Below the pieces are notes generated by a model that saw only the letters and a list, made by a program, of their open reading frames with translations, did not search any database and was not told the origin of the DNA. A stretch of DNA of 64,000 nt from IMG/VR virus record IMGVR_UViG_3300000233_000007, positions 1 to 64,000 of that record, one strand, 5' to 3'. The translations under genes were made by a program, and so were the position numbers. This DNA comes from a virus. The number at the start of each line of letters is the position of its first letter. Within the stretch, counting starts at the first letter, position 1. Shown here piece after piece: positions 1 through 61,600 of the stretch.

Positions 1-59
1 CTACAACTGGTGCAGCAGCATTAGACAATGCTACAACTGCAAACAAATCAACTTGGTAG
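1..59 (+). CDS. 3' end of a plus-strand gene entering from upstream; C-terminus ...TTGAAALDNATTANKSTW* identical to that of minus-strand ORF 114..857
   Basis: Frame 3 translation of 3..59 ends in TAG at 57-59. It is the mirror image of 114..172. Confidence 0.4.
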   Translation, partial: TTGAAALDNATTANKSTW

Positions 60-172
60 TAATCAAATAAATAAAAGAGAGTTAGAAATAACTCTCTTTT
101 ATTTATTTGATTACTACCAAGTTGATTTGTTTGCAGTTGTAGCATTGTCTAATGCTGCTGCACCAGTTGTAG
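1..172. repeat. Perfect inverted repeat (palindrome): arms 1..84 and 89..172, GAAA centre at 85-88, running to the window edge
   Basis: Reverse complement of 1..84 equals 89..172 exactly (checked base by base across 61..112 and 1..60 vs 113..172). It contains the stop codons and last ~19 codons of two convergent ORFs. Confidence 0.9.
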
Positions 173-3482: not shown

Positions 3483-3760
3483 TTAATTTTTAATATTAAT
3501 TTGTCTAAAACTCTTTAAATTTCCAAGCATATTTGCTCTGAAATGTTGTGGAAAAATACAATGTCTTGATTCTACAAGATGTATTGTTCTCATATTAGGA
3601 AATATAGGATTATTTTTACTGTCTTTTATAGATAAACCAAAATGTTTAGTTAATTTATATCTTTCATCATTTGGATTAAATATTGTAAATACATAATCAG
3701 CATCTTCTGCTAAATTCTCTTTTATTATCACAGTTGTTCTTTTAATCAACTGTTTCTATA
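3483..3760 (-). CDS. Replicative DnaB-family helicase, exon 3 (C-terminal part; boundary approximate)
   Basis: ...LAEDADYVFTIFNPNDERY matches the DnaB C-terminal motif EQDADVVMFLYRDEYY. The reading frame opens only 12 codons upstream of the listed ATG, directly after an in-frame stop. Confidence 0.55.
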
Positions 3761-4627
3761 TATTTCTATATAGGATGGACTATATCATCATCTCTATTGA
3801 GATGTTGGGTACTCTTGTCAGTATTATATTCTACTATTAAAGTAGTTTCAACCATTAGTCTCTGAACCTTCACACTTTGTTAAAGGTGTGCTTGGCTGCT
3901 GATTACCTTGCATTTCTGTTTAGGCTTCCCAGCAATTCACCCAATTCCTTTACAACATCACTATTGTAAGGGGCTTATTGAATAATTATTTTCTATTATC
4001 TCTTTTAAATTTACTAAAATAAAATCCTTTTATAGATTTTACATTCATATTGTAATTATCAAACCTATTAATATGATTAGAAATTGAAGTTTTAGAAACA
4101 TTTAACTCTTCAGAAGCAAATTTTACTGATTTATACTCTTTATAAAAAGTATTATCACTATTATAACAATAAATAGTATTATAAAAATTTGTTTTATTTT
4201 CTTCTTTATTAAAATATTCTGTTATTTTTCTTTTCCTAACCATTTCATTATTAACATTAATATTTTTAATTAAGTTTCCTGGTCCAGCATCTACACCATT
4301 TACTAAACTATGTTTAATAAAATGTTTTTCAACTAATTTTTTCTCATAAATATGAGATTCTTCCCAAGAACAATTTAAAATTGTTAATAATTTAATTTTT
4401 GGTCCGATACCATTTTTTAATAAACTTCTTATCCAATTCTCTTTATGAGAATTTGAATAATTATTTTTTGATTTACAAATATGTTGTGAAAGTCTTTTTT
4501 CAAGACTACTTTTTGTTCTTCCAATATACCTTATTTCACAATTATAAGGATTATATAAGCAGTAAATTTTTATTTTCATAATCAATTTTTATATGACTAC
4601 AAAGATAAGTAAAAAATTTCTATTTTC
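3761..4627 (-). mobile_element. Putative group I intron 2 in the helicase gene, carrying GIY-YIG HEG 3986..4585 (boundaries approximate)
   Basis: Non-coding 3750..3985 separates helicase motif H4 (..SDDIKDTG) from ..LAEDAD. It shares 12-14-mers (tctctgaacctt at 3859, cttggctgctgatt at 3891) and a near-identical 3' end with the polymerase intron. Confidence 0.5.
3986..4585 (-). CDS. GIY-YIG homing endonuclease
   Basis: IYCLYNPYNCEIRYIGRT...LEKRLSQH...N: canonical GIY-YIG layout with the Arg and His, then a basic C-terminal DNA-binding half. Confidence 0.7.
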   Translation of the reverse strand: MIMKIKIYCLYNPYNCEIRYIGRTKSSLEKRLSQHICKSKNNYSNSHKENWIRSLLKNGIGPKIKLLTILNCSWEESHIYEKKLVEKHFIKHSLVNGVDAGPGNLIKNINVNNEMVRKRKITEYFNKEENKTNFYNTIYCYNSDNTFYKEYKSVKFASEELNVSKTSISNHINRFDNYNMNVKSIKGFYFSKFKRDNRK

Positions 4628-5402
4628 CAAACCTGTATCTTTAATATCATCAGAAGTAGGATATAATTCATCTTTAGCATGTCTTATTCTATCTACATCA
4701 GTCATACCTCTATTTGTATGTATAATAGGTACAAATGTATAACCACACCAATTTCTTAATTCTACCATATATTCAACCATTTTATCAACAGTTTGTTTCA
4801 TCTGCCAACCTCTCTCATTGATTAGTTTTCTTAAATGGTCCATTATTATGATAGTATATTTTTCTGGATGGTCTGATACATATCCACCTATTCTTGATAC
4901 AACACCTGATTGATAACTAACAAATCTTCCTGATTTTTTAGCATGTTCTTTAAGAAATTTATAAATTCCTGTTGGATTATCTTTTTGTTCAATAAATTTA
5001 ATTAAACCTTTTTTCAATAATTCACCATTTTGAGCATATTCTCCAAATAAAGGAATAATTCTGTTTTCATAAACAACTTTTAATGCTTCTTGAACACTTT
5101 CTTTAACTCTTATAATATTTCCATTATCATCTTGTAATCTACCTCTTAAATAATCAGGAGATAAATCAATAATATTATTTGTAATACCACCAGAAGTATA
5201 AGTAATACCTTCATCTAACTGTATTTTTTCCATACCAAAATCATGGAATAGAAAATAAGCAGCAAAATCAAATTCTTTACTTATTCTATCTAATTCAAAA
5301 GAAAAATAAATCCATTCAACAGGTATATTATTCTGTACTGCATATAGAAAAGGTTGTATTACAAAAGCATAATCTACAAATGTACTCTTACCCAAGAGTT
5401 GT
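4628..5402 (-). CDS. Replicative DnaB-family helicase, exon 2 (RecA-like core; boundaries approximate)
   Basis: Begins ..LLGKSTFVDYAF (second half of Walker A). IIIMDHLRKL is the H3-like motif. ...VPIIHTNRGMTDVDR...SDDIKDTG is the DnaB arginine-finger region. The ORF-track M is a TTG, and an in-frame stop lies 2 codons upstream. Confidence 0.7.
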
Positions 5403-6238
5403 TATCTTAAAGGCTCTTTATCCTTTAATTCTGCAATTTCATTTGTTATAGTTGCAGTTCAGACTATATCTTCTACTCTTTGAGTAGTGCTGATTTCTTG
5501 CACATATTATATTCTCTTTTACAGAGTTTCAATGTGTAGTCGTTTGGCATTTACTAATATATTATTATTAGATTTAGCACAGGATTGTCCACTTCTGGAG
5601 TTTCCCTGTTTAACAGCATTTTACAAGACCAGTTTATATGAGAATATATAACCATTCATTTGTTTGTATTTACCATATAATACTCTTTGTATTCCACTTC
5701 TATCCATACCTAATTGTATAGATGCTTGTCTTATACTTGAATATTCATTAATAAAATTACCTTCTAAATCAGTTTGTATAATTGATTTTGAACCATTTGG
5801 TTTCATTCCTTCTTCAAAAAGTTTTAATCTACTAATAGACATTTTCTTTTTACTTTCTTCTGAAGGAGTATTATTAATTACATCTCTTGTTATATTATAA
5901 ACAGGATTTAATTTATCAACAAAATATTGTTCTCTTTCTAATAAAGATTCTGTACAATATTCTAATACACCAAATTTAAAATTTTCAATACCATATTTAT
6001 TTACTGCTGATTGCAACAAATTATTAGGGTTTTTATTATGATTTAATAAACTAAAATGTTTTGTTTTTCTATTACCTAAATTCATAGAACTTCCAATATA
6101 CATTTCATTATTTACTAAATTCACAATTACATAAACACCTTCATTTTTAAAATTATATATTTCCATATCATTTATTTATTGCAAATATAAAAACTAATTT
6201 TTACATCCACAACAAAATGCACCATTTTCTTTAGCCTT
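5403..6238 (-). mobile_element. Putative group I intron 1 in the helicase gene, carrying GIY-YIG HEG 5621..6166 (boundaries approximate)
   Basis: It interrupts the Walker A box: exon 1 ends ..RIYGVAAAP, exon 2 starts LLGKSTF. DnaB has ..VAARPSMGKTAF. Non-coding structured segment 5403..5620. Confidence 0.55.
5621..6166 (-). CDS. GIY-YIG homing endonuclease
   Basis: GVYVIVNLVNNEMYIGSS...R...H...N motif set. Confidence 0.75.
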   Translation of the reverse strand: MEIYNFKNEGVYVIVNLVNNEMYIGSSMNLGNRKTKHFSLLNHNKNPNNLLQSAVNKYGIENFKFGVLEYCTESLLEREQYFVDKLNPVYNITRDVINNTPSEESKKKMSISRLKLFEEGMKPNGSKSIIQTDLEGNFINEYSSIRQASIQLGMDRSGIQRVLYGKYKQMNGYIFSYKLVL

Positions 6239-6376
6239 TGGTGCAGCAGCAACACCATAAATTCTACCTCTTTGTACTCCATTGATAGATTTAGAAACAT
6301 TAGCTAATCCATCACCCATAGGTAATCCTTTATTACTACCTTCCTGACCTTTTTTGAATTCTTCTATTAGATTCAT
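6239..6376 (-). CDS. Replicative DnaB-family helicase, exon 1 (no N-terminal DnaB domain)
   Basis: GLPMGDGLANVSKSINGVQRGRIYGVAAAP matches DnaB GLPTGFxDLDxLTGGLQPGDLIIVAARP. Downstream residues to the stop at 6194 look intronic. Confidence 0.6.
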
Positions 6377-6927
6377 TATTGCATAGTATTAGTTATAGCT
6401 GTTCTACCTTGTTCTTGTTCAATACTTAATTTGTATTTTTCAATCCAATCAAGTAAATCACTTGTTTTAGTAGCACCATCACCTTTTTCAATAAAATAAT
6501 GTGGAAATCTAATATAGTCTGGGTCTGTATTAAGAAGATACATTCTTGTAGCACCTAATACATCTTCTTTTCTTATATCAGGATTTTTAGCAAATAATTT
6601 TTTCATTCTTGCAGTAGCTTCTCTCACTTTTCCACCTCTACTTGAATTATGTTCTTTAAATGCTTCACAAAAATGAGTTTTAACCCAATCAAAAGCAGTT
6701 TGTTGTCCTTCAAATAATGGAATATTCCATTTATAAGAAGTTACATCACCATTTTTACTTATCTTTTCAGCTTCATAAATATTAGTAATATTCATTCTTT
6801 TTTTAAAATCATCAGGAACATAACTTGGATTATAACCATAGAATAAAGATATTAAATAACATATTCCATCATCTTTCTGAATTCTAAATTCAGTTAAGAT
6901 TTCTAAAATGTCTTCATTTATATTCAT
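6376..6927 (-). CDS. Hypothetical protein, probably replication-associated by position
   Basis: 183-aa ORF. Stop overlaps the helicase start (ATGCAATAATG). Confidence 0.5.
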   Translation of the reverse strand: MNINEDILEILTEFRIQKDDGICYLISLFYGYNPSYVPDDFKKRMNITNIYEAEKISKNGDVTSYKWNIPLFEGQQTAFDWVKTHFCEAFKEHNSSRGGKVREATARMKKLFAKNPDIRKEDVLGATRMYLLNTDPDYIRFPHYFIEKGDGATKTSDLLDWIEKYKLSIEQEQGRTAITNTMQ

Positions 6928-7691
6928 AGTTTTTGTTTTACTAATTCATTTAACTGATAATTTAACTCATGTTCATTATCTATATCAATTTCTGTTTGAT
7001 TTATACAATTTCTAACATCATTAATAGATAAACAAGGTTTATTTAATAAAACATATTCTTCAGCTTTTTCTTTTGTTGAAAAATACTTTCTATCTACACC
7101 ATTACCAGTATGAGTTTGTGAAGCTCTATTTACTTTATGTATTTCACTATTAGTATTTTTTAATGCTCCATAATCATAAACCCAATAATCATCACCTTCA
7201 GAAATATTTACACCATCTTCAGTTTTAAATAAAAAAGAAGTATGTCTAATTGTATTTAAAGGCATAGTTGTACCAGATTTAGCTTGACAAATAATCTTTT
7301 CACCAGGATAAAAATATGTTATTTCTTGAATAGCATAATTAGTCAATTCATCTGTTAAAGAATCTTGAACTTTATCACCAATAGTAAAAACTTTTCCATC
7401 AGATAATCTTTCAACTGAATAAATTGTAACACCATGAGTATTTAATAAAGCTGTAATATACTCTTCACCATGTCCAGTCATATTAGATAATCTACCATCA
7501 TGTTGTTTTAAAATTATTATTTTATAATTCTTTTCAACAACTTCTTCCCAATATTCAGGATAACCTTTTGGTTGAAACCAATTATGATTCCAATAATGAG
7601 CATAATCTTTTTGCATAGTAGGTTTTGATATATAACCTATTTCTGGACTATTTTCAAAAGGTAATTTTTTAATTAATTTGAACTTTTTCAT
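6924..7691 (-). CDS. Hypothetical protein
   Basis: 255-aa ORF overlapping both neighbours by 4 nt. No motif I can name. Confidence 0.5.
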   Translation of the reverse strand: MKKFKLIKKLPFENSPEIGYISKPTMQKDYAHYWNHNWFQPKGYPEYWEEVVEKNYKIIILKQHDGRLSNMTGHGEEYITALLNTHGVTIYSVERLSDGKVFTIGDKVQDSLTDELTNYAIQEITYFYPGEKIICQAKSGTTMPLNTIRHTSFLFKTEDGVNISEGDDYWVYDYGALKNTNSEIHKVNRASQTHTGNGVDRKYFSTKEKAEEYVLLNKPCLSINDVRNCINQTEIDIDNEHELNYQLNELVKQKL

Positions 7692-8800
7692 AATTTAATG
7701 TTTTTAAATCTTATATATTCAACTTTGCTTTTATCAAAATTTTGCAATGCAGATTCAACCCATTTTTCATCTTGAGTTCCAATTAAACATAATACCCAGA
7801 TAGTTGCTTTATAATTAGGTTGGTCCAATAATGTTCTTGCTACTTTTTGAGAAGTTAATCCATTTTTATCTGAATCAGCTTGAACCATAAATAAATGGTC
7901 AATTTCTTTATAAGTAGTACCAACTCCACCAGCATTTACCATAGCAATTTCATCAATTTCACCAGAAATAAATTTATTTAGATATTTATCATCAGTTTTA
8001 CTATGAAAAACATTACTACATAAATACTCTGCTTGTTTAATACCAGAAGAAAATATTAACTTTCTTCCTTGTAAATTATCAATAAGATATTTTGCTGCTT
8101 TAGTTTTTGAATCACTATCATAAACTGACCTCATTCTTGCAAGAATTCTAAATTGTGCATCTTTTCTTTTTTGAAAAATAGCTTTTTGTGCTGAACTACT
8201 TAACCATTTATATTGTTCTTCTTCTGAAGTCATAAATGGTTTATCTTTAGTACCAGCTTTTACAGTTTTTTCTCTACTCATATCAATCTCAATTACTTTT
8301 ATAGTATAATTGGCTAATAAACCAATATCTACTGCTTCATTAATTGATAATTCATATAATATAGGTAGTTTTAAAGACTTGTAAAGGTCTTTTTTAGTTT
8401 CATGTTTAGTTTGAGTTCCTGTCATACTAATAATGTAATCAGCAGTAAGTTTTCCATTGATTATATTAGATAAATTGTTTTCAGTAGCAAATTGTTCTTC
8501 ATCTAAAATAATAAGTTCATAATGACCTTTTATTTTATTTAAAGAAGTCCATGTTACTGTCTTCAATTTATTTAAGAACTTTTTAGCTTTCCAAGTATTA
8601 AATTCTTCTGGTATATCTTCTTCAGCTAATTTAGCTAAAGGAGTTACCCAAAGAATTGATTTTGGATTGTTCTTTTTAATAATATCAATAACAAGTTTAC
8701 TTTTACCTACTCTGGGTGCTAATAACAATCTACCATGAGGTTTCAAATCTAAAGAATCAACTATTTCCTTTTGGATTTTACTCTTTTCTTTGTTTGTCAT
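7688..8800 (-). CDS. SF2 DEAD/DEAH-like ATPase/helicase (UvsW/SNF2-like)
   Basis: Motif I LLLAPRVGKSKL, motif II LILDEEQ, motif III ISMTGTQ. Confidence 0.6.
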   Translation of the reverse strand: MTNKEKSKIQKEIVDSLDLKPHGRLLLAPRVGKSKLVIDIIKKNNPKSILWVTPLAKLAEEDIPEEFNTWKAKKFLNKLKTVTWTSLNKIKGHYELIILDEEQFATENNLSNIINGKLTADYIISMTGTQTKHETKKDLYKSLKLPILYELSINEAVDIGLLANYTIKVIEIDMSREKTVKAGTKDKPFMTSEEEQYKWLSSSAQKAIFQKRKDAQFRILARMRSVYDSDSKTKAAKYLIDNLQGRKLIFSSGIKQAEYLCSNVFHSKTDDKYLNKFISGEIDEIAMVNAGGVGTTYKEIDHLFMVQADSDKNGLTSQKVARTLLDQPNYKATIWVLCLIGTQDEKWVESALQNFDKSKVEYIRFKNIKL

Positions 8801-9665: not shown

Positions 9666-10660
9666 GTAATTGTTTCACTTTATCTATATACTTTCATATA
9701 TAGGTGGACTATATCTTTAATTACTTGGTATTTTCTCAATATAATAACCTTTAAATAATACTTTATTAGATTTCTTTTTAAACATAGTTGCAATTACATT
9801 TTGTAATTTCATTTTTTGCAACTCATTATAAAATATATTTTTTATAAATGTCATTCTATTATCATACAAATTATAAGAGTATTTAGTTAAATTTTTAGAC
9901 ATTATTTCAGATTGTTGTTCTTTTCTTGAATGATTATCTTTCCAAGATTTTCTTAATTTTTCTGAATGATTATCTCTCAATCCTTCTTTCCATTCCTTTT
10001 TTAATCTATTTGATATTTTTTCAGAAGTTTTTGGATGAACTATCATATTTGTACTACTATCTTTTCTTAAATTATAACCTTTAGAAGAATCAGTTGTATT
10101 ATAATAATCTATCCAATATAATTCTCTATTTGAAATTAAATTCAAATTCTCAATATATTCAATAACAAAAAATTCAAAATTATCAATACTGTATTTGTTA
10201 ATTGAATTTAAAAAATATGAATTTATATGATTGAAATTTTGTCTATTTATTTCATAAATATATTGATGACATCTATTATAAAAACATTTAGTTTTTCCAA
10301 CATAAAGTTTATTATTTTTTAGGTTTCTTATACCATAAATACCTGATTTGTTCTTTAATAATATATTAGGATTCATTGTGAAATTATTTCAACAAAGATA
10401 CATAATTATTATAACTTATCAAACAAACTTTAATAACTATCTTGCTTTTCCCAGTAATAAATTACCAGTACTCCTTTTCAGGATAGTCTCTGAACCTTAC
10501 CCATAATATTTAAGTTATATTTTAGGGTCTTGGCTGCTGATTGTCCATTCATTCATCTCTTTAATTTTCAAGCATTCACACTCACCTTTTCAAGTCATGT
10601 TGTAGCTTAAAGAGCTTTAGGATATTCCAGCAATTAACAAGATTAAGATGCAAACTTTCA
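9666..10660 (-). mobile_element. Putative group I intron in the DNA polymerase gene, carrying GIY-YIG HEG 9717..10376 (boundaries approximate)
   Basis: Non-coding 10377..10616 holds tctctgaacctt (10487) and cttggctgctgatt (10529), shared with helicase intron 2. The 3' end (9676..9716) is near-identical to 3751..3790. Confidence 0.5.
9717..10376 (-). CDS. GIY-YIG homing endonuclease
   Basis: SGIYGIRNLKNNKLYVGKT...NR..QY...N. Confidence 0.75.
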   Translation of the reverse strand: MNPNILLKNKSGIYGIRNLKNNKLYVGKTKCFYNRCHQYIYEINRQNFNHINSYFLNSINKYSIDNFEFFVIEYIENLNLISNRELYWIDYYNTTDSSKGYNLRKDSSTNMIVHPKTSEKISNRLKKEWKEGLRDNHSEKLRKSWKDNHSRKEQQSEIMSKNLTKYSYNLYDNRMTFIKNIFYNELQKMKLQNVIATMFKKKSNKVLFKGYYIEKIPSN

Positions 10661-40124: not shown

Positions 40125-43100
40125 CAATAATAATATTTCTGAATTAAATACAGGTTTACATACAGATAATTCACCACAAAATCAACCTAAAGGTACTTAT
40201 AGATTTGGTTTAAATACTGTGAATGAAACTGATAGAGGAGATGAATTTTTTAGAAGTAATGAAGAAAGTAATGAAAGATGTTATTCATTAACTCCTGGTT
40301 TTGTACCTATTGGTAAATGTTATATTGGTGGCAATGAAACTATTTTATTTTCAGTATCACAAGATAATATTATTTCAGAAATAGGTATATTAAAAAACAA
40401 TTGTAATTATGAAGTGCATGTTAATGACTTATCTTCTGCACCAGAACATAAATTAGGATTTACTATTGAACATCAAATTCAAGCTACTTATAGATTAAGA
40501 AGAGGTTGTGAAAGAACAATTTATTGGACTGATGATAATAGAAAACCAAGATATTATAATTTTGATAAACCAGCAGATTTTAAAAATGATGATGGTACAT
40601 GGGCAGGTAAAAAGTTTAATTTATTCAAAGAATACAATGAAATACCTGAATTTAAAACTGTTGAAGTATTAGATTCTGGTGGTGTACTTGAACCAGGAAG
40701 TTATAATATTGCTATTCAGTATTTAGATGAAGGTTTAAATCCTTCTGAATGGATTATAACTTCTCCTACTATTAATATTTATAATGACTTATCAACAGAA
40801 GATTTTCTTGATATTCAAGGTAGTATAAATTCTGATACAGATTATATTGATTTTCCTGTAACAACTAAATCTATTAAAGTAGAATTTGATAATTTAGATG
40901 AAAGTTATGCTTTTTATAGACTTGCCTTTATGGAAGCTACTAATGGAACTGGTAATATTAGTGATGTAAAATATACTGATACTATACCAACTTCTAAAGA
41001 TTTCTTTATATATACAGGTGAAAATGCAGCAACTACTGGTACACAAGAAGAAATATTATTTTTTAATGAAGTAATATATAAAGCTAATTCAATTGAACAA
41101 ATTGAAAATAGATTAATATTAGTTAATACAGAAGGTAAACAAACTAACTTTTGTAAACTTCAAAAATATGCAAGTAGAATAAAAGCTGATGTTGTTACAA
41201 AAAAAGTATTAACTAATCAATTAGATGACCCAAGAAATACTAAAAATCCTACTGTACATTTTGGAGATATGACCACAGGTGGTACAGGTTATATGCCAGG
41301 TGAAATATATTCATTTGGTATTGTTTATGTATTTGAAGATGGTTCATTAAGTCCAGTATTTCATATACCAGGAAAGAATCCTAATGTAGATGCTTCTATG
41401 GTATTTTCTCCAGGTGATAATACTTATCCTATGGATAATAATAATGAAAGTGTTAATAACAGATATATTGATAATGATAATTGTAATAATAATGATTATT
41501 GGGGATTAGATTCAGAAGGTGTACCTCTTCAAGGTAAACCAGTTAGACATCATAGATTTCCATATAGAAGTAAATTAGGATTACCATTAGCAAAAGAAGA
41601 AACTGCTTTAGGTACAGGAGAACAAACTTTTCCATATTACAGAATACAATTGACAGGTACAGGTACTATAACATTACCAGTAACATGTAGTCAAGATGAA
41701 ATAGATGCAGGTACTTGTACACCAGTATTAGCACCACCATTTCAAGTAAGAGTTACTTATACTGTTGATGGTGTTCAAGAAACTATGGTTGTAAATATTG
41801 ACCCAAGTGTATTATCAAATCCAGTTAATATTTTAGAATTTTCTAATTTATATACTTCAAATAATATAGTTATTATTAAAATTGAAGAAGCAGATGAAAA
41901 TGGAGTAGTTACAGATGTAACTTCAAGTGTTTCACCTAAAGGTATTACTTATGTAGCTTTACCTGTTAATTCAACAATAACTACTGAAGGTAGAGTATAT
42001 TCAACTGAAATATTAGGTATTAAATTTAGTGGTGTAGATTTACCTTCATTAAATGATACTGATGGAGAAAAAATAGTTGGTTACTATATAGTTAGAAATG
42101 AAAGAGTTGAAAATGAAAAAACAATTTTAGATAGTGCTGTATTAGTACCAACATTAAGTAATAATAAATATATAGCTCATGGTTTATTAGCACCTCAAGT
42201 TGCTGATACAAATAGATTAAGTAAAACATTATTTGGTGTTATACATCCTGAACATAAATTTAATGGAAGAGAATATAACAATTTTGATTATATAAAACAA
42301 GAAGGTAACTTTAATGTTGATAAAAGAAATTTAAGTAAAACTATGTATAATGATGTACTTGATGGTTCATCTTATGATGGTGATGCACATAAAGGTGGTA
42401 ATGATGATGGTCATGGAGCTGATGGTCAACCAAGTACAAGAAGTTATGATGGTTGGTCATTAACATTGATTATTAGAGATAATTACTTATCATATAAAAT
42501 TAAAACATTATTTAATATTGTTAAAGCAAATGTAAAAGAAGTATTTTATTTAAAAGCATTGCAAAGTAGAGATATTAATGATGGTGCAAATGCAGCTTAT
42601 AATATTACTGGAGATAATAGAATAGGAATGATTCAATTTAAAAATGATGAAGTAAATCCTGTTATAAACAATTTACCTTATGTATTATTAGGAAGAAATA
42701 TTCTTGATTCATATTCTAATTTTAGAACATTACCTTATTATAAGGATAGTTTAAATTTAGAAAAATTTGATGCAAATGGAGTTGGTGTATCTACTATATT
42801 TAATGGAGATACTTATGTATGTCCTATGAGATATACTAATAGTTTATTTTGGGATAATAGAGTAGCTGAAAGAGCTGGTAGAACTTCTGTATGGAATTAC
42901 ATTATTGGTGGTATATTAATTGTTGTAGGTGCTATTTTAACTTTCTTTACAGCAGGTGCATCTACATTAATTATTGGAGCAGGTATTGCTATTATTGGTG
43001 GTGGTGCTTTATTTATAGCTTCTGGTATTGAAAGAGATGCTTTAGTAAGAGCATATAATGAAGAATATAGAAGAGGATTAAGAGAAACAGCTTTAGATGA

Positions 43101-49640: not shown

Positions 49641-52600
49641 ATGGCTAAACAAGTTAGATTAGGAAAAGGTAATTTAGGAGCAAAACAAGAAGTAGATAAA
49701 GAAATTATTAAACTTCAAAAACAACAATTATCTAATAAAGAATATCAAGATTTCTTATTAGAATTTCCTTCATTAAAAGCTCAAGAGAAACAAGAAGAAG
49801 ACCAAAATCTTGCAGTTCTAAATCAATTAGAAAAAGAGCAAGAAATTTCAGAAGTGGTTAAACAAAATCAATCACAAGAGAAATGGTATTCTGGTATTAC
49901 AAATTTTTTTGAATCTTTTAGTGATAGAGGAGATATAGCTGATTTATGGTATAATAAAGAAGATGGTAAATGGTATGAAAAACAATCAGATTTATTTGGT
50001 ACTTATGATAAAGAAAATTTAAAAGAAGTTCCTTATGATAAAGTTCAATCATTAATAGAAGCTCAAGCAAAAAAAATGAGTAAATCTGGTGGTTATCAAA
50101 CTGGTATTGCCACAAATAATATTGTAGATAAAGTATTTGAAGATGGTGTATGGGGAACTGTATATGGTCTTGGTAGTTTAATAACAAGAGGTGTTACTGG
50201 TAATTGGGATGATGTTAATGATTCTCAAATGGAATCACTATGGAATAGAACTAAATATTATGGTGCTAATGTATTAGATGTATTTAATGATGCTATAACA
50301 AGTGCTGATGCTGGTTTAGAAGATGAAGCTAATAATCCTGATATTCCTTTTTCATTCTTAATGAGTAAACAAGAACAAGATATTAGAGATGCAAAATATA
50401 ATAAAGAATATAAACAAATTCAACAAAAAGGACAAAAAGCATTAGAAGTTAGATTTGAAGAAGAAAAGAAAAGAAGAGCTTCTGGTGAAAAACTTTTAAT
50501 TGATAAATTATATGATTGGTCAGAAGTTGAAAAAGATAATGATTGGTTTGCACAACAACAAAAATTAAAACAAACAATTTCTGAAAGAGCTATGGAGCTT
50601 GAAGGAAGAAAGAAAAAATCATTTACAAATGTAAAAGATACTATAAATCCTGGTACTTTTAAATATGTTGATGATGCTAAAAAAATAAACATGGAATTAC
50701 CATTAGAAAAAACTGGTGAAGGTAATTCTAAAAGTATATGGGATGTACAAAAATTAATTATTGATGCTTCTGGTAAACCTGTATTAGATGAAACAGGTCA
50801 ACCAATGTATGCAGATAAATATTCATTTACAGAAAAAATTGCAAATTCTAATTGGGATGTTCTTGGTGATGCTTATTATTTACAAGATGATTTAGCTCAA
50901 GGAGTTGGTACTGCTGCTGGTTTTATAGTAGGTGGTAAAGGTACTAATGCAATGTTAAATACAGTAGGAAAAGGTATTGGTAAAACTGCTAATGTAGTTT
51001 CTAAAGGTTTAAATTTAGAAAACAAAGTATTTAATTATACTAATAAATTATTAAGTACAACTAATAAAGTAACACAACCATTAGGTAAAACTATTAATAC
51101 TATTGATAATACTGCATTTAATAAAACATTAAATATAGTAAATGATAAAGTATCAAAAGCAATAAGAACTACTATTCAATCATATTTAATGTCTAATACT
51201 GAATCTGAACAAATTGGAAGACAAGTTCAAAAACAAGTATTAGATGAACAAATAGATAAGTATGCTAAAATCAATATTCAAGATATTGCAAAAGATTTAA
51301 GTGAAAGTGGTAATTTTTCAAGTGATGCTTCTTTGTTTTTACAAGCACAAATGAAAGCAGAAACTATTAGAAAAGAATGGGCAGATAAAAATCCTGAACT
51401 TTTTAATGAAATATTATTACAATCTCAATTAGCACAAGAACAAGCAAGAGGTATTAATAACATAAACTTTATTAATAATATAACTTCAGCAGGTTTATTT
51501 GTTAAAGGTAAATCTTTTTCAAGAAATTTATTATCTAATCCTTTTTCTAAAGCAAATTTAATAAAAGGTGCATGGACTATATCAAGAGAGATGGTTCAAG
51601 AAGGTTTAATTGAAGAAGGTTTAATTAATGGGTTTGCAGAAAAAGCTGGTAAGCAAACTGGTAATATGAAATTCTATGATGTATCTGACTTCTTTAAAAA
51701 TGATGTTGGTTCATCTGAATTTGTTGAAAATGTTTTTGCTGGAGCAATACTTGGTGGTTTACAAACTGCTGGTACTAAAGGAGTTAATGTTATTAGTGAG
51801 TACAAACAATTTAAAGAACAAAAGAAAATTGTAGATGAGTTATCTAAAATTGGTTCTTTAGATACTAAAGAAAATATTAAAAAAGTAATTGAATATTCAT
51901 TAGACAAAGCTAATAATGAAGCTGTTGCTCAAAGAATGAATGAGTTATTAGCAGAAGGTAAAGAATCAAAAGCAAATGCTTTAGCTGATACTTTATTGTT
52001 AAACAAATCTGTAAGAGCTGCTACTTCAGGAACTACTGAAGTTTTGAATAAATCATTACAAGACTTAATGCAAAATAAAGAATTAAGTCCAGAAGATAAA
52101 CAAGAATTACAAAAAGCAATTGATTTTAATAATAAAATTGCAGATACTTTTGATGCTCATATTAAATATGCAAACAAAAAAGGTATTATTGAAAATAGAG
52201 GTAATAGAGAATTACTTGAAAATTATAAACAAGATTTAATATCTTCATTACCAATTCTTGAAAAAGAATATAATGAAGCATTAGAAAGACAAATTAGAAA
52301 AGAATTATCTTCTGAAAATTCTGATTATTCAAATACTAATTATTCAGAGATTTTTGAAAATAAAAAACAATCATCTAAATTAAATGATGACCATAGAGCA
52401 TCAGTAGAATTAAATACTGCTAAAAAACAATTAGAAGAATTACAAAATGTTCAAGATGAATTAGATGATAAATATGATTATATAATTTCTGATAAAGGTC
52501 AAAAAAAATATATTAAATTAATGAACAATATTAGAAAAAATAATATTGTTAGAGATGTTAATGATAAAAATGTAGATGAAGTAAAAGATAATTTAAGAGA

Positions 52601-55600
52601 AAATGATGAACTAACACCAGAAGTTAATTCTGAAATTAATCAAACAGTTGAAGAAAAAGTTGCTAAAGATAATTCTAAAGTAGTTGAACCTGTTGCTAAT
52701 AAACAGGAAGAATTTGTTGCACCTAATAATGAACAAACAGTAAAAGAAGATACTAAAGATGTTCCAGAAAAAGTTAAGGAAAAAGCAAAAGAATTTAGTG
52801 CAATAGTTCAAGAACCTTTATTTGATGATAATCTTGGAGACCCATCAAATGATGTTAGAAGTAATGAAGAAATTGCTGATGATAATGATTCATTAGCTTT
52901 ACAACCTATTGGATTAGATGAAAATAATTCTAATCATAAAAATATTGTTAGTAAATATACTAACATAATGAAAGCATTAAATAAAAATATTGCTGATGAT
53001 TTTGGTACTAATTTAACTGCTAAAGAAATGTTTGGTTTATTTGCTTCTCAAGTTGGATTTGATGTTGCAGAAAAACATTTTAATTTCTTTAAAAAAGGAT
53101 TTGAACAATCAGGTATTGTTGATGAAAATATTAACTGGGATAATTTATATAGTAAATATTTTGATAAAATTAAATCATTTTCATTTAATGAAGAAGTATT
53201 AGAAACTCCTTCTACTATTGAAGAAGTTAAAAAACAAGATGAAGAAACTAATTCAATTATTCAAGAAGATAGTAAACCAATTGGTTATAATCAAGACAAT
53301 ACTCTTATCAAGTATCTTGGTAGAAAGATTGCTGCTGCTGTTAATAAAATTCCTTTTTTAGGAATTAAATATAGAGCTGTGTTTAATGAAATGGATGGAA
53401 GTGTTACTTATGTTAATGATGAAGATGGAGAATTAAATACAGAAGGAATGTCTAATTTAGATGTTGTTTTAAATCCAGATTTATTAGTTTCTGGTAAAAA
53501 ATTCACATTAGAAATTCCACAAGATTGGAGAACAAGAACTGTATCTGATTGGAAGTCAAATGAATTAGGTGTGTTAATCCAAACTACTATGACTATGGAA
53601 GAATGGATGCAACAAAAAAATATTACTCAAGATTCTCAAGAATGGTTGGATAAAGTTCCAATGGATATGATTGTTGATGGTGTTAATATTGGTCCTGGTA
53701 TACATGATGTTTCTTGGTGGAATACAAGAAATGTAGCTGATTTTGTAGATGCTACTATTAATGATGAAAAAATATCATCTGAACAAGCTAAACAAAGACA
53801 AAGAAAAATTATAAGTGAGGGTAGAGAACTTACAAGAAATATTAGAAAAAATGTTTTAAATGGTAATAATGAAATGGTAATTACTGATAGAGAAGAAGGA
53901 CATACTCTTTCTACTCCTGATGGTAAACTTAATTCAATTACTGAAGCTAATCCTTCAGCACAAATTGCTATATTCAGTCCACAAGGATTTATAGTTAATA
54001 AAGGTGATAATGGTAATGAGTATTCTAAATTAAATATTGTTAATATTAATTCTATTACTGATAAAGGTCATGTTTATATGATTTCAAGAATTGGTACAGA
54101 AGTTAAAGATGGTAAAAATGTTCCTACTTATGTGGCTCATAAATTACACACTAATCATAATCAACAAAATTTAGTTGAACTTGCTAAATCAAGACAAAGA
54201 ATGTATGATGCAGCAGATATTTTAAATAAAATTGGTAAGTATAATAATCCTACACAAGAACAAATTACTTGGGCAGAGAGTGTTAGAAATCAAGTTAGAA
54301 CTATGACTGGTGTATCTATTGATAATATTTCATCAGAAGGTACTTCTATACAATATATTGGGTTAGGTAAATTAAAACAATTATATCCTTTAACAACAAA
54401 AAATAAATCTGGTTTAATGTTATTACCTCAACTTGCAAATATTAATAATCAAAAGTTACCTGTTGTACATGCAGATGGTTCAGTAACTAATTATAAATCA
54501 AAAGCAGGAGAAGGTTATAAAGCTATGTTAATGGATAATTTACATACTCAAAAGAAATTTCATACTATACAAGACCAGGAAGGTAATAGTATGCAAATTC
54601 TTGATATACAACCAAGAATCAAATTTGATTTAGTAAATAAAGACAAAGATGTAGTTAAAGAAGAAAAGAAAGAAGAAATTAAAAAAGCTAAAGAAAAAAC
54701 TTCTTTAAGTGAAACTGAAGTTATTTCTAATGAAACATTTAATGATTTTGTTGATAATGGTACTGTTGATAATTCTGTAATTGAAACAATTGCTGAAAAA
54801 ATAAAAAGTAATGAATCTTTATCAGAAAGAGAGTTAGCAATATTTAATGATAAAACTTCAGAAGTTAATGAAGTTTTAAAAAATATTCCTATTGAATCTA
54901 TAACTCATGGTCAAAGACAAAGAGTAGTTGAACATTTGTTTCATAAAATATTAAGTTCAATTGATATTAGTAAAGATTTTACTAATCAAGATGTATTAAA
55001 TGATATTAAAAATTCATTTGATAATCATTTAGCTGATATTAAAGATACTAAAGAATATGAGTATTTAGTTGCTAATAGAGATTCTATATTAGGTCTTGGT
55101 AATTTTTCTAATGATATTAATACAGTTAAATCTGAAATTGAATCATTTTTAAATCAAGAATTTCAAGAAGATACTAATGAAGAAACTCAATTAAATGATG
55201 AAGGTCAATTTGAAAAAAATAATAATAAAGCATCTTTTGAAAATGATGTAAGAACTTCATTATCTACAAAATTAAAAATGTTTTTTGCAGGTATTGAAAA
55301 AGATAGTTCTAAAGTAGTATCAGAAGATTTTGCTGGTTTAAGTTCTTATTATGGATTAGATGAAGTTATAGGTGGTTTACAAGATATGTTAGTAAATGTA
55401 CCTAATAATCCATTAGCATTTAAAAATAGAATTGAAAACCAAATTGCTAAAAATCCAGAAGAGTTTGGATTTTTACAAAATGTATTAGATAAATTTGAAT
55501 CAGCTCCAGTTGAAATTCAAAAAGAAATTCTTTTTAGATTAAATCAAACTAAAAATGAAATGTCTTTTGTTATGTATTCTAAATCAAAAAATGGTAATTA

Positions 55601-58600
55601 TACACTAATGACTTATGATGCTAATTCAAAAAATCCTAATATTAAAACAAAATTGCAATGGCAAGAGAATTTTAAACAATCTAATTTAATTGAAAATTAT
55701 GGAGATAATTATAGAGTAAAACAAGATATTGCTAATCAATTAATTAATCAATACAATTCATGGAAAGGTAAATATGAAAATGTACCTAATAAAGAATATG
55801 TAGATTGGTTATCTAATTTTGGTATTCAAGTATCTGAAAAAACTATTCAAGATTATAAAGATGGTTTAGTTGATGGTAATATTAATTTTCCTGGTGTATT
55901 TGCTGTAAATGGTGGTGTATTTGGAACATTATATAGTAACCTTACTTCTGCTATTGATAAACAAAATAAAGATTCAAAATTAGTCTTTAAATACAAAAAT
56001 GAAAATAAAAACTCAAAAGATGGGTTCAATATATTAATGAATAACAATAATGGTTTCTTAAAAACTATGATTGATGTTCAAGTTAATAATACATTTAATT
56101 TAGCAAGTAGTATGTATATTGGTGGAAAAACAATTAATGCTTTTTCTCAACCTAATTATACAACTGAACAATTAAGAAAATTAAAAGATGATACTAATCC
56201 TTTAGTTTCTAATTTACAAAATACTGCTTTTGCTAAAAATAGTTTATTATTGAAACTTATTAATAATCCAAAGATTAAAAATGCTTTAAACATTGGATAT
56301 GTAAGTTTACAATCACTTAAACAACAAGGACAAAAATTATATCAAGATTCAGAAATTGTAGATTTATCATCACAAGATTATGATTTATTGTTACAAGGTT
56401 TCTTTGAAAGTGAAGGTGCATATTTCAAAAACCAGGAATTAGAAAATAATGGTATATCATTAAGAGAAACTAAAATGACTTTTCCTACTCTTTCAGATTC
56501 ATCACAAATGTTTGTGTTTAATACTGTTGGATTAGATTTAAAGAAAGGTAATTTTACTTTTGTAGATGGTAAAGTTAAAATCAATTCAGAGGTTTTAGAT
56601 GTTTTATATAGTCAATTAGTACAACCTGATTTAGATAGAATTGAAGCATATTTAAAATCAGTTGGTAATACTAATGTACAAGGATTAGATTTAGGTTCTC
56701 AATTGTTTACAATGATACCAAGTCTTAATACTTTACCAATTAAAGTTAATGGTACTGATGTTAAGTTATTAACTTTGATTCATACAGGAATTAAAAATGG
56801 TAATAATGTAAATGATATAATTGAAGAATATAAAGAACAAATTCATAAAAAATTACAAGATGTAATTTCTAATAGTGCTGAATCAAAAATCAAAGTTGAA
56901 AATCAACAAATGAGTGGTTCATGGGTTACTAATGGATTTGTTCAAAATGGTGAAACTGAAAGGGCAGGTGTTAATGTTAGTTTCTTGGATTCTAAATATA
57001 TTAATTCAAGAGGTACTACAAGTAAATTAGAAGCAACTCAAATTGCTGCTTATGATTTTACTATTAATTATTATATAAATCAAGCACAAATTCAAATGTT
57101 GTTTGCTGGAGATATATCTAATTATGTACAAGATAAACAAGCATCTAAATTTAATATTGATAAAAATGGAAATGTAGATGTTACAAAACCTAAAGTTTCA
57201 GTTAATGATAATGAAAATCAATTAGAAAAAGAACAAGAAGTTTATACTAATATTATTAAAGATACTTCTGTTAATATGTCTAAAAGGTTGAAAGAACTTA
57301 TTAGTCCTGGTAATAGAATAGCTGAAAGTACAAATGAAAAATATATACAAGTAATGGTTAATGATGTTGAAGAAGCATCTAACACATTAGAAGAATTAGT
57401 TAAAATGTGGTATTCTGATTTGTATGAAGAAAATAAAAATGATATTAAAAAACTTAAAGAATTAGAAAGTAAAATAAGAAAAGAAAATAAAGAAGGTAAA
57501 TCTGCTAAAGTTTCAGAGAATGAATATAATGCAATCAAGAAATCATTACAAAATAAATTTCCTGATATTGCTAATTATTTTAAAATTACTGCAACTGATG
57601 CTCAAGAATATACTACTTGGCAAGAACATTTACATATTTTACTTAATCAAGGTAGAATTAAAAAAGATGTATTTGATAGTTTATATTCTAAATTAGATTC
57701 TCAAAGTAAAGATGGTTTAAATGAAAATAATACTTTAAGTAAAGATGAGAAAAAAGTTATCTTTCAAGTTATTAAACCTTTACATGCTGGAATGTATTTT
57801 GAAGATTTAAAAAATAATAAAGGTGAAGTAGTATCAAAAATACAAAGATATGTTTATGTTAAAACATCTTCTTTTCCATTATTACCTCAATTAACTCAAG
57901 GTATTGAATTAGATAATTTGAGAAAAAATATTGAACAATTGGAAGCAAAAACTGGTAAAAAAGTTAGAGTTTCTTATCAATCAGGTAATAAAGTTGGTGG
58001 TGTTAAAAATGCAATAAATATTTCTGAACTTTATTCAGATTATAATGGTGAATTAGAAAGTAAAATTATAGCAAGTTCTGCTACACTTGATAGAGAAAAT
58101 TTTTCTATTCAACAAGATAAACCATTTAAAACTGATAAAAATATTAAAGCTAATAAAAGAGATGAAATTAATAGAGGTACTCAATTTGAAAAAATTATAT
58201 TAGGTAATGGTATTAATCAAATAACAGAAAAAATATTTCCTAATAAATTTGATAGTTCTTTATTAAAATCATTAGGTATTACTGAAGATAATGGTAAAAT
58301 ATCTGGTAAAGATTTATATGCAATATATAATAATCTTTATTCAAGAGAACAAAGTATATTAAGAAATCAATTATATAATTCATTAGGATTAAATAATAAT
58401 GGTGATTGGGTTAATAATATTGAAACTTTAGAACATATTAAAAATGCTTTAAATAAAAGATTATCTAATCAACAAGATAAAGAAATACTTGAGTTATCTT
58501 ATATAGTTGCAGAAGAAGATGAGAATGGTAAATTAGTTAATCATTATTATTCTAAAAAACAAATGGAAGAAAAAGGTTTAAAACCTACAAGAGCAGAATT

Positions 58601-61600
58601 TAATATTCCTATTTGGATGTCTCCAAATTCAAGAAAATTTGAATCTGTACTTAATTCAATTGTTAATAATAAATTGGTTAATCTTAAACTTCCTGGTTTT
58701 TCATCTCCTGTTGCATCTCAAGAAGGATTTAGATTTGTTGATAATTTAGATTCTATTGATAAAACTGGAATTATATTTACAGATAAATTTGAAGGAGAAT
58801 TAAAAGCAACTCATAATTCAGATGGTAGTTTAAAAACTGCACAAGTATTAGTTGCATCTAAATTTAGAGTTAAAAAGGAAAATGAAGATACAGGTAAATA
58901 TACAGATGAATTATTAGACCTTACTCAATATACTAAAACTCTTGAAGATGGTAGAACAGTTCTTGATATGGATAAAGTTAATCCAGAATTATTAGAAATG
59001 TTCTCATTTAGAATTCCAACATCAGCTCACCAATCAGGTGCTTTGATTGAAATAGTTGGTTTCTTACCACATGGTTCAGGAGATTTAATGATTGTACCAA
59101 AAGACCATACTACTCAATTAGGAGAAGATTATGATATTGATACAAGATATGTTTATTCTCAAAATTATAGAATAGATAGTAAAGGTAATGTAAGAAAGAT
59201 TGATGCAAAATACATTCAAAGAAGAATAATAATGTTAGAAGATAATTTTCAATCAGAACAAGAAACTGAAAGAAGAATTGATGACATATTAAATTTATTT
59301 GATTCTATTAGAAATAATGAAGAAATACAAAATATATTTGCTAATGAAAGAACAAGTCAAGAACAAAAAGTACAAATATTAAAAGATAAATTAAACCATC
59401 TATTAATTGAAAATCAAATTATAGATGTATATAAATCTATATTTTCTTCTACTGATGAAAAAATTCAGAAGATGATTGGTGCTACATTATCTACAAAATT
59501 TGCTGAAGATAATGCTAAAGCAATAGATGATAAAATAAACAGTCAAAATACAGGAGAGAATTTTTCAATATTTGATGATAGACACCAGAAATCAATTTTG
59601 AAACTTGGTGCTTCTGGTAAATTAGGTATTGGGGTACATTCTAACTGGGTAGTATTAAATTCATTATTTCAACAAATGGAGAAAAAACCAAGATTGATTA
59701 ATGGATTTAATCAAAAAACTGGTAAAGCAATACCTTTTAGTATGAGAATTGGTAACTTCTTATCAGTTGGTAAATTAGGAGAAACAAAAGCATTAGAACC
59801 AGAAAAACCAATAAAAGGATTTATACCAAGGTTGTTATCAGTAGTTAATATGGAATCTCAAAACTCTGCAACAGATAATCAAAAATTACAGATTATGGGT
59901 AGAAGAAATGAGAATAAATATACTATTAATGTATTTGCTTTGATGTCTAATTTAGGATTTGATAAAGATATAGTAAATGGTAAAGAATTATCTCTTCCTT
60001 CATTATTTATATCTCAACCAATTATTAGAAGATATGTAGAATTAAAAGAACAATATGATTCTATTATATCTGATTATCAAGAAGATGTTGATGAAAAAAT
60101 AACAGGTATATTAGCTCAAGAATTTAGTGAAGGAGTTGATTTAATTAATACTAAAGCTGGATTAAGAATGGATTTTGACCAAATGAAAGGTGTTGAAGTT
60201 TCTGAATTAACTGCTCAAAAATTATATGATAGTTTATTAAAAGGTAATAATGCTCAACAATGGGCTGTGTATGAAAAATTTATGGATTTATCTATTCATG
60301 CTAAAAATATAAATAAAGTTCAACAACTTGCTAATATTGATAGTGATGGTTTAGGAATATCTTTCTTTAATACTATAAACAAAAAAGATTCATTGTTATT
60401 ACAAATGACTTCTGAAAATCTTAATATTGAAGGTATTGAAGGATTGTTTGGTAAACAACAATTAGTTAATAATAATGAAGAAGATTTACAAAATGATTTA
60501 CTTAATGAAGGTTATATTAAAGTTGAAACACAAGATACATATAGTGTTTTTGTTAAACCTACATCACCATTAAATAGTAAATTAATTAGTTCAATATCTT
60601 CTGGTTATAATTTATGGAGAAATGTTTTACCATTTGAAAATGAATTTATTGATGAACAAATTAATAGTATAATTGATATAACAGGTAAAAATGCTGATAC
60701 TAAAAATGGATTAGAATTAAAATATAAAGTAATTTCTGAAATGAAAGATTTTATTTATTCATACTCTAATCTTGGTATATTTGATAAGTCAGTTAATGAA
60801 GAAAGAAATTCTTTATTCATTGATACTGATACTAATCAATCATTAGCATCTTATCTTAATGCACTTAAAAAATCTAATCATAAATTATTTAATGAACCAT
60901 TTTTTAAAGATTTAGAATTTGTATTAAACAAAAATAATGAACCATCATTAGTTAAATATACAACCAATGATAGAACTAATTTTAATAAAAATTCAGTTTA
61001 TAATTTGTTTAGTATATTAAATGAATCTAAAGAATCATTACCAGGATTTAATCAAGATATGAATTATACTTTTGAGAAATTAATAAAAGATTTAACTAAA
61101 TATAGTTTGTTAGCTAATCAAGAAAATGGTGCAATTGGATTTAGAAATTATATTCCATTAGCAGTATTAAATAAATATAAAGTAACTGATAATTTAAGAA
61201 GATATTCTGGTGTAGGTAAAAACAGTAGTCATAATTTATTATTGAATGGTGATTTTAAAGGATTAATGAATATTATTGGTGCATATCAAATAAATGAAGA
61301 TAATACTATTGATGTAGAATATGGTAATTCAAAAATGATTCAAGGTATTATAGATAAGATAAACACTAAATATGGTACATCTTCTTTAGTATATGATGAA
61401 AATAATAGTAGAATAATTGTTAATACAGATTTATCTAATTTTAAAAGTGTATTCATTAGACAATTCTTTCAACATAATCCAGAAGAAGCTAAAAAATTCA
61501 ATTGGAGAACTAAAAAAGAATGGTTAAAACAAGCTAATTCACAAACATTAGAAGAATTAGATTGGTTTGTTCCAAAGAAAGAAATGCCTGAATATATTTC

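Follow-up and report, generated by a model that had tools for sequence, protein, structure and literature searches.

Background

The group I introns of phage T4 in td, nrdB, and nrdD (sunY) belong to subgroup IA2, contain P7.1/P7.2-type helices between P7 and P3', and carry the sequence GAUAUAGUC at J8/7-P7. They interrupt conserved codons of genes of DNA metabolism, encode endonucleases that join a GIY-YIG domain to a DNA-binding module (I-TevI and I-TevII), and are present in some phages and absent from others; their endonuclease open reading frames (ORFs) sit in P6a or P9.1. A related core occurs in the DNA polymerase introns of Bacillus phages (SPO1 type; e.g., Hakuna and OmnioDeoPrimus), where a replication gene is likewise annotated in two pieces, and the SPO1 intron encodes the HNH endonuclease I-HmuI. 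The present analysis concerns a helicase gene in the viral record IMGVR_UViG_3300000233_000007 (positions 1 to 64,000, the 64,000 nucleotides (nt) hereafter called the window), which is interrupted twice, very probably by group I introns of IA2-like type. The arrangement is the classical phage one of T4 td, nrdB, and nrdD and of the SPO1 DNA polymerase, and the introns would share with those of T4 the ribozyme class, the GAUAUAGUC sequence, and the kind of endonuclease; the differences are that the host gene is a helicase, that the host phage infects Bacteroidota, and that the endonuclease ORFs lie in the P1 loop. It is thus a known kind of selfish element in a new host gene, and a literature search found no paper describing introns in this helicase.

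Two further systems invite comparison. In crAss-like phages, which infect Bacteroidota and have genomes of about 90-100 kb, group I introns are dense in core genes; they were found via endonuclease protein domains, and a helicase of the window type is not among the genes listed (Yutin et al. 2021, PMC7886860). The nearest cultured relatives of the phage of the window are Flavobacterium phages of FpV4 type (Fipvunavirus) rather than crAss-like phages proper. DnaB inteins occupy the P-loop (site b) and motif H4 (sites a/c), and in some DnaB proteins both positions are filled (Novikova et al. 2016, PMC4760082). They are selfish elements with homing endonucleases in the same two motifs of superfamily 4 (SF4) helicases as the window introns; they splice as protein, in frame, whereas the elements of the window, as RNA introns, contain stop codons and a ribozyme core each. 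We take the Synechocystis DnaB intein, at RESG/SIEQDAD, to occupy the position homologous to DTG/NLAEDAD of the window helicase (here and below, slashes within a sequence mark insertion sites).

Exons and identity of the helicase

The original prediction had read a DnaB-family replicative helicase split into three exons by two gaps with homing endonuclease genes (HEGs), and the minus strand does contain everything described: three coding pieces, two GIY-YIG ORFs, and structured non-coding sequence. Gap-free alignment to uninterrupted homologues places exon 1 at 6376-6233 (48 codons, ending ...GVAAAPKA), exon 2 at 5392-4631 (254 codons, GKSTF...DIKDTG), and exon 3 at 3716-3483 (77 codons and a stop, NLAEDADYVF...INIKN), the last base of exons 1 and 2 being U. 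Joined conceptually (minus strand, 6376-3483), they give a 1140-nt in-frame coding sequence (CDS) for a protein of 379 amino acids (aa). The junctions first proposed (6239 to 5402 and 4628 to 3760) were a few nucleotides off and are corrected to 6233/6232...5393/5392 and 4631/4630...3717/3716. Homologue alignment also replaces the earlier ends ...AAAP and LLGKSTF by ...GVAAAPKA and GKSTF; the end of exon 2 at ...DIKDTG stands, with exon 3 beginning at NLAEDAD, and the Walker A box is indeed cut by one intron (AAAPKA/GKST). Junction 1 reads AAG GCU/...G/GGU AAG and junction 2 ACA GGU/...G/AAU UUA, so that in both introns a U directly precedes the intron and a G is its last base. Only the corrected placement satisfies the protein alignment and this U/G rule together. 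The expected joined-exon sequences are ...CCAAAGGCT/GGTAAGAGT... at junction 1 and ...GATACAGGT/AATTTAGCA... at junction 2. In-frame stops precede both 3' splice sites (TAA 9 nt upstream in intron 1, TAG 39 nt upstream in intron 2).

A search of 5.8 billion proteins returned 670 homologues of the conceptual product. The closest, P0001, is uninterrupted, has the same 379-aa length, and aligns with 88% identity, 100% coverage, and no gap at either junction (E = 9e-234), which rules out a chance arrangement. In a 16-sequence alignment of the product with uninterrupted homologues neither junction is gapped, and invariant columns flank the joins (Gly49, Lys50, Ser51, and Thr52 at the first; Gly302, Asn303, Glu306, Asp307, and Asp309 at the second); splicing restores the invariant GKST and NxxEDxD columns. 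Gene callers split the helicase into at least three hypothetical fragments (60, 268, and 82-88 aa), and related contigs are treated likewise.

The spliced product matches the DnaB profiles, as had been anticipated: Pfam DnaB_C at 33 bits (cut-off 27) and the DnaB-like helicase families phrog_19 and phrog_243 of PHROG, one match covering residues 9-81 and spanning junction 1. A sequence-profile search against the PDB gave nothing significant, only chance matches (e.g., tektin and beta-glucosidase), and the helicase was therefore placed by fold search. The AlphaFold model (pLDDT 73.7, pTM 0.78) retrieved DnaB, SPP1 G40P, or T7 gp4 as all of the top 50 PDB matches in Foldseek (best E = 1.8e-12). 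The N-terminal (primase-binding) domain of DnaB was not found by Pfam in the product, which has only 379 aa and its Walker A from residue 43. Because this domain is missing, the product counts as a divergent, DnaB-like helicase core of SF4 and not as a canonical DnaB, a correction to the original prediction. The crAss-like "replicative DNA helicase" genes match the product at ~25% identity. Its nearest cultured relatives, at 56% identity, are in FpV4-type Flavobacterium psychrophilum phages, where the gene is intact and annotated as hypothetical. The host is an FpV4-like phage of Bacteroidota, known from metagenomes only, since megablast with the locus as query gave no match among GenBank phages.

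Ribozyme cores

Intron 1 (6232-5393, 840 nt, minus strand) separates the Ala codon of Walker A from its Gly codon (KA/GKST), and intron 2 (4630-3717, 914 nt, minus strand) the Gly codon of motif H4 from its Asn codon (DTG/NLAEDAD). A covariance model, R1, was built from 42 non-redundant relatives in other viral contigs, fetched by 25 fixed bases common to both window introns; the window sequences and a near-twin, L087, were excluded. R1 matches intron 1 at 115.7 bits over all 169 model positions, with one non-standard pair, and intron 2 at 143.1 bits over the full 169 positions (3952-3776). Intron 2 is also detected by Rfam RF00028 (3993-3756; 89 bits, gathering score 50, E = 2e-21). RNAalifold, applied to the alignment of the 42 relatives, recovered P3, P4, P5, P6, a two-tier P7.1 domain, and P8, with compensatory changes in 24 of the 29 pairs of these helices. 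The P7 strands GACUA...UAGUC are present in both introns and are the same as in the family and the Rfam consensus; this helix is invariant, so covariation is uninformative for it. Extra helices between P7 and P3' are a hallmark of subgroup IA in the Michel-Westhof classification.

The motif UUGAAAC-N-AAUAUAAUA-N-GAUAUAGUC, which runs through the P7.1 domain, P3', P8, and the 3' strand of P7, is common to both introns. It occurs twice in the window against none expected from shuffles, which again rules out chance, and in at least 119 IMG/VR stretches. In blastn searches the cores match Bacillus phage DNA polymerase introns, Staphylococcus phages, crAss-like phages, and nrdD of T4/T5-like phages; the P3-P5 part of intron 1 accounts for matches to the nrdD region of T4/T5-like phages, and the core of intron 2 for those to crAss-like genomes. 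L087 carries a core nearly identical to that of intron 1 in a uracil-DNA glycosylase gene (GQD/PYP), together with a LAGLIDADG endonuclease.

The core of intron 1 occupies 5626-5460 (P3, P4, P5, P6, the 5' strand of P7, the P7.1 domain, P3', P8, and the 3' strand of P7 with GAUAUAGUC at 5470-5462; full-length R1 match). It is followed by P9 (5457-5431), P9.1 (5426-5409), and the tail AAGAUAACAACUCUUG up to the terminal G at 5393, a P9/P9.1/GAUAACA...G layout found in family members. The core of intron 2, from P2 to P9, spans 3993-3756 and is followed by P9.1 (3753-3730), which shows two compensatory pair changes between the window and the related locus L206, and by the tail GAUAAUAAAAGAG up to the terminal G at 3717; P2 covaries among the window, L206, and L209. 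A terminal G is likewise present in L205, L206, L207, and L209. The structured non-coding stretch after the endonuclease ORF is 228 nt long in intron 1, within the 220-240 nt estimated earlier for each gap, and 269 nt in intron 2, outside it.

Splice-site pairings

The internal guide sequence of intron 1, GGUCUU (5630-5625, minus strand), pairs with the end of exon 1, AAGGCU (6238-6233), in a P1 of 6 base pairs with a U.G wobble at the splice site. The guide lies 6 nt upstream of P3, and the endonuclease ORF runs into it with its last codons. L209, which has the orthologous intron, shows AAGGUU in the exon and GACCUU as guide, a compensatory change from C-G to U-A at position -2. L087 pairs the exon sequence CAGGAU with the guide GUUCUG in the same register. 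The same guide and exon layout was read by eye in L108, L171, L129, and L113, and likewise by eye in relatives with no endonuclease ORF. A short P10 (ACU with GGU) is possible in intron 1. The pentamer GCACC (exon 1, -12 to -8) is complementary to GGUGC (intron 1, +10 to +14), so that the 5' splice site would fall in a loop of 16 nt (6244-6219, minus strand); both arms are kept in the L209 intron, and the pairing could be an alternative structure competing with P1.

For intron 2, the proposed 3' strand of P1 contains the guide UUCAAUAAGCC (3982-3972, minus strand), and P2 (3971-3947), capped by a GUGA tetraloop, comes immediately after it. The GCC at 3974-3972 would pair with the exon end GGU, again with U.G at the splice site. 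The tetranucleotide AGCC immediately 5' of P2 is kept in L206, L207, L208, and L209 despite their diverged cores. This P1 assignment is tentative.

Two other candidates for guide pairings were rejected. A P1 between exon positions -12 to -7 and the first part of the intron (GCACC with GGUGC in intron 1, AAAGAU with AUCUUU in intron 2) leaves the splice-site U unpaired or opposite A; the partner of AAAGAU in intron 2 is the promoter-like motif TATCTTTG. The P9.1 hairpin of intron 1 (AAAGG...CCUUU), complementary to the end of exon 1, was considered as a guide, and GGAUAAAGAGCC hairpins turned out to be the conserved, family-wide P9.1 whatever the exon.

Endonuclease genes

Each gap does hold a GIY-YIG ORF. 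HEG1 (6166-5621, minus strand) encodes 181 aa with a GIY-YIG domain and NUMOD1/I-HmuI-NUMOD-like parts, identified by Pfam (GIY-YIG PF01541, 36.2 bits; NUMOD1, 29.7 bits; PF22083, 38.8 bits) and by homing endonuclease families of PHROG; its last codons overlap the guide. HEG2 (4579-3986, minus strand, ATG at 4579) encodes 197 aa. GIY-YIG was not listed by Pfam at E<=0.01 for the full-length HEG2 ORF, and the N-terminal 102 aa scanned alone gave 26.7 bits (cut-off 22.6); the C-terminal part is NUMOD1-like, with a borderline score of 22.4 bits against a cut-off of 22.8. BLASTP detected no similarity between HEG1 and HEG2. L206-L209 have homologues of HEG2 at the corresponding helicase site. In each intron the 5' splice site precedes the ORF and the guide follows it, which puts the ORF in the P1 loop.

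A motif fitting TAnnTTTG, which we take to be the Bacteroidota -7 promoter motif, ends 16 nt upstream of the HEG1 ATG (TATATTTG, 6189-6182, minus strand) and 21 nt upstream of the HEG2 ATG (TATCTTTG, 4607-4600, minus strand). It is conserved in the orthologous introns (L209 for intron 1, L206-L209 for intron 2). TAnnTTTG is not enriched across the window (54 observed versus ~60 expected on the minus strand) and is notable only for its position upstream of the HEGs, where it may serve as their promoter.

Splicing model and its alternatives

From the two matched cores and the U/G boundaries we infer, as the original prediction had proposed, that the helicase is restored by group I RNA splicing, and we regard the assignment of both gaps to IA2-like group I introns as very probable. 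In the proposed mechanism, the helicase gene would be transcribed in vivo as a single pre-mRNA in which each intron folds into a P3-P9 ribozyme core. The guide just upstream of P3 (intron 1) or P2 (intron 2) would pair with the end of the upstream exon to form P1, with the U.G wobble at the splice site. Transesterification initiated by guanosine and a subsequent attack at the terminal G would then join the exons, restoring ...AAAPKA-GKST... (Walker A) and ...DIKDTG-NLAEDAD... (motif H4) in a 379-aa helicase. Each GIY-YIG gene in a P1 loop is probably expressed from its own promoter, and its product is expected to cut intron-less helicase alleles during co-infection, repair then copying the intron in.

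Several points weigh against this reading. Up to ~50 bits of the R1 scores arise by construction from the 25-nt fetch motif, and the R1 E-values are rough; the score remaining beyond that is still large. Intron 1 has no Rfam match, even at E<=10, and the group I scan suggested for both gaps thus succeeded with Rfam in the downstream one only. This miss says little, because RF00028 detects only 6 of the 15 loci with the shared motif, all clear relatives, and misses the other 9. The proposed P1 of intron 2 has just three exon pairs (GGU with GCC) and three contiguous intron pairs, possibly with a further three across a 2-nt bulge. Its exon side is invariant among relatives and hence uninformative for covariation, its intron-side pairing is imperfectly conserved across them, and no convincing P10 was found for this intron. 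ORFs of ~550-600 nt inside the P1 loop make P1 a long-range pairing. No database protein identical to the spliced product was found among the 5.8 billion sequences searched.

The alternative that survives best, and which is nevertheless very improbable, is that endonuclease insertions have split the gene and that three separate polypeptides assemble into an active helicase. Phage genes split by free-standing endonuclease genes do exist (T4-like nrdA and DNA polymerase), and the ORFs of exons 2 and 3 can each open with TTG. Such starts fit the protein poorly, however: that of exon 2 would fall inside the P-loop and leave an N-terminal fragment of 48 aa, while the TTG of exon 3 adds 11 residues found in no homologue. 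Also against separate polypeptides are the complete group I cores, each placed precisely from the endonuclease ORF to the exon that follows and abutting that exon, the U/...G/ boundaries, and the covariation of P1.

Slightly less probable again is that mobile DNA has disrupted the helicase gene, now a decaying pseudogene, and that the phage relies on another helicase. A PIF1/UvrD-type helicase-like gene does lie near the helicase in the relative L001. The spliced CDS, however, has a dN/dS of 0.14-0.18 against three intron-less homologues, and in every exon synonymous differences greatly outnumber nonsynonymous ones, which counts against a pseudogene. All invariant family residues are retained, the exons are free of frameshifts and stops, the ribozyme cores are intact, and the intron sites are shared by phages with helicases of 70-85% identity.

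An assembly or chimera artefact, for which the suspect contig end with its perfect fold-back at window positions 1-172 might speak, is hardly credible, since an independent Logan contig (L004) is 99.96% identical across 11.3 kb including the whole locus and at least five other contigs from other samples have the same introns at the same sites.

As for the fold-back itself, it is a perfect inverted repeat in which 4 nt separate two arms of 100% complementarity (1-84 and 89-172), and L004, otherwise identical, continues differently there; the repeat looks like an artefact of the contig end.

Distribution and mobility

All four combinations of intron presence and absence are found among relatives. 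The helicase gene is uninterrupted in L001 (positions 6001-7140) and in the 80 best IMG/VR loci. Intron 1 alone occurs in L205 and in the P0013 contig (a 60-aa piece, a GIY-YIG ORF, and a 332-aa fusion of exons 2 and 3), and intron 2 alone in L206, L207, and L208. Both introns are present in L209 and in the window and L004. The four states are as expected for mobile introns.

Related insertions at P-loops of other genes have been found as well. A HEG1 homologue (45% identity) occurs with a related intron in the Walker A (GARPGV/GKT) of a canonical DnaB_C helicase (Pfam E = 1.4e-23) that is only ~20% identical to the window helicase, the insertion position being 1 nt away. Loci such as L095, L110, and L149 have related, GIY-YIG-encoding introns 1 nt before GGTAAAAC (GKTS) of a P-loop protein. 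These two insertions, together with the position of intron 2 in the intein-occupied motif H4, point to a possible, if doubtful, specialisation of the intron 1/HEG1 lineage on Walker-A-coding DNA, by which it might have moved between the P-loops of distantly related or unrelated genes.

Two side observations concern the loci of the L095/L110/L149 type. The gene next to the P-loop gene has, by eye, a VWA domain-like translation, and the P3-P4 region of the introns resembles that of the window polymerase intron described below.

Other elements of the window and its relatives

A third group I intron (10659-9676, minus strand, 984 nt) splits the DNA polymerase gene of the window (ORF 12137-10617, continuing into 9569-9027), the exons ending at ...10660 and resuming at 9675.... 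Its junction at DV/NNY was located by tblastn with the C-terminus of the FpV4 DNA polymerase, and its last base is G. It has a classical P1 hairpin, AAGAUGU/GAAAGUUU-GCAUCUU, and a GIY-YIG ORF (10376-9717) between P3'/P8 and the 3' strand of P7 (GATATAGTC, 9715-9707). Rfam gave no match to this intron, and R1 only a partial one of 17 bits (10574-10445). Directly upstream of the polymerase gene lies a fourth GIY-YIG ORF, with NUMOD3 (12720-12130, minus strand); no ribozyme was detected around it, and it appears to be a free-standing homing endonuclease.

The window polymerase is homologous to one annotated in FpV4 and has no Pfam match. The helicases of the window and L001 are 88% identical and their DNA polymerases are unrelated (Pfam DNA_pol_A at L001 568-2493, the FpV4-type enzyme at window 12137-10617); tblastn with the L001 DNA polymerase A found nothing in the window. 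This difference resembles the polymerase swapping described for crAss-like phages. In L001, a strong R1 match (96 bits) at 7675-7858, just downstream of the intron-less helicase and between ORFs of 35 and 192 aa, probably represents a further intron of this family, located in another gene. An unannotated stretch at ~79.7-79.9 kb in Fpv1, Fpv2, FpV21, and related GenBank records is similar to P4-P6 of intron 2; in these cultured FpV4-type Flavobacterium phages, a group I intron not yet described is probably present at another place in the genome. Two weak R1 matches in the window (51502-51604 and 41803-41854) were dismissed; the first falls inside a single uninterrupted ORF of 4381 aa (49641-62786, plus strand).

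Implications

The split helicase does not overturn current understanding. Its exact junctions restore an essential replication gene in the annotation. As the group I model of Rfam overlooks intron 1 and the majority of the relatives tested, introns of the family of introns 1 and 2 are probably under-counted in Bacteroidota phages. The window combines three group I introns with four GIY-YIG genes, all within 10 kb of its replication module, and offers a compact natural case for phage intron homing in Bacteroidota. The occurrence of RNA introns and DnaB inteins in the same motifs (P-loop and H4) supports the idea of a convergence of homing elements on the most conserved coding DNA, irrespective of the chemistry by which they splice. 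If the specialisation on Walker-A-coding DNA were true, the intron 1/HEG1 lineage would be the RNA-level counterpart of the P-loop inteins.

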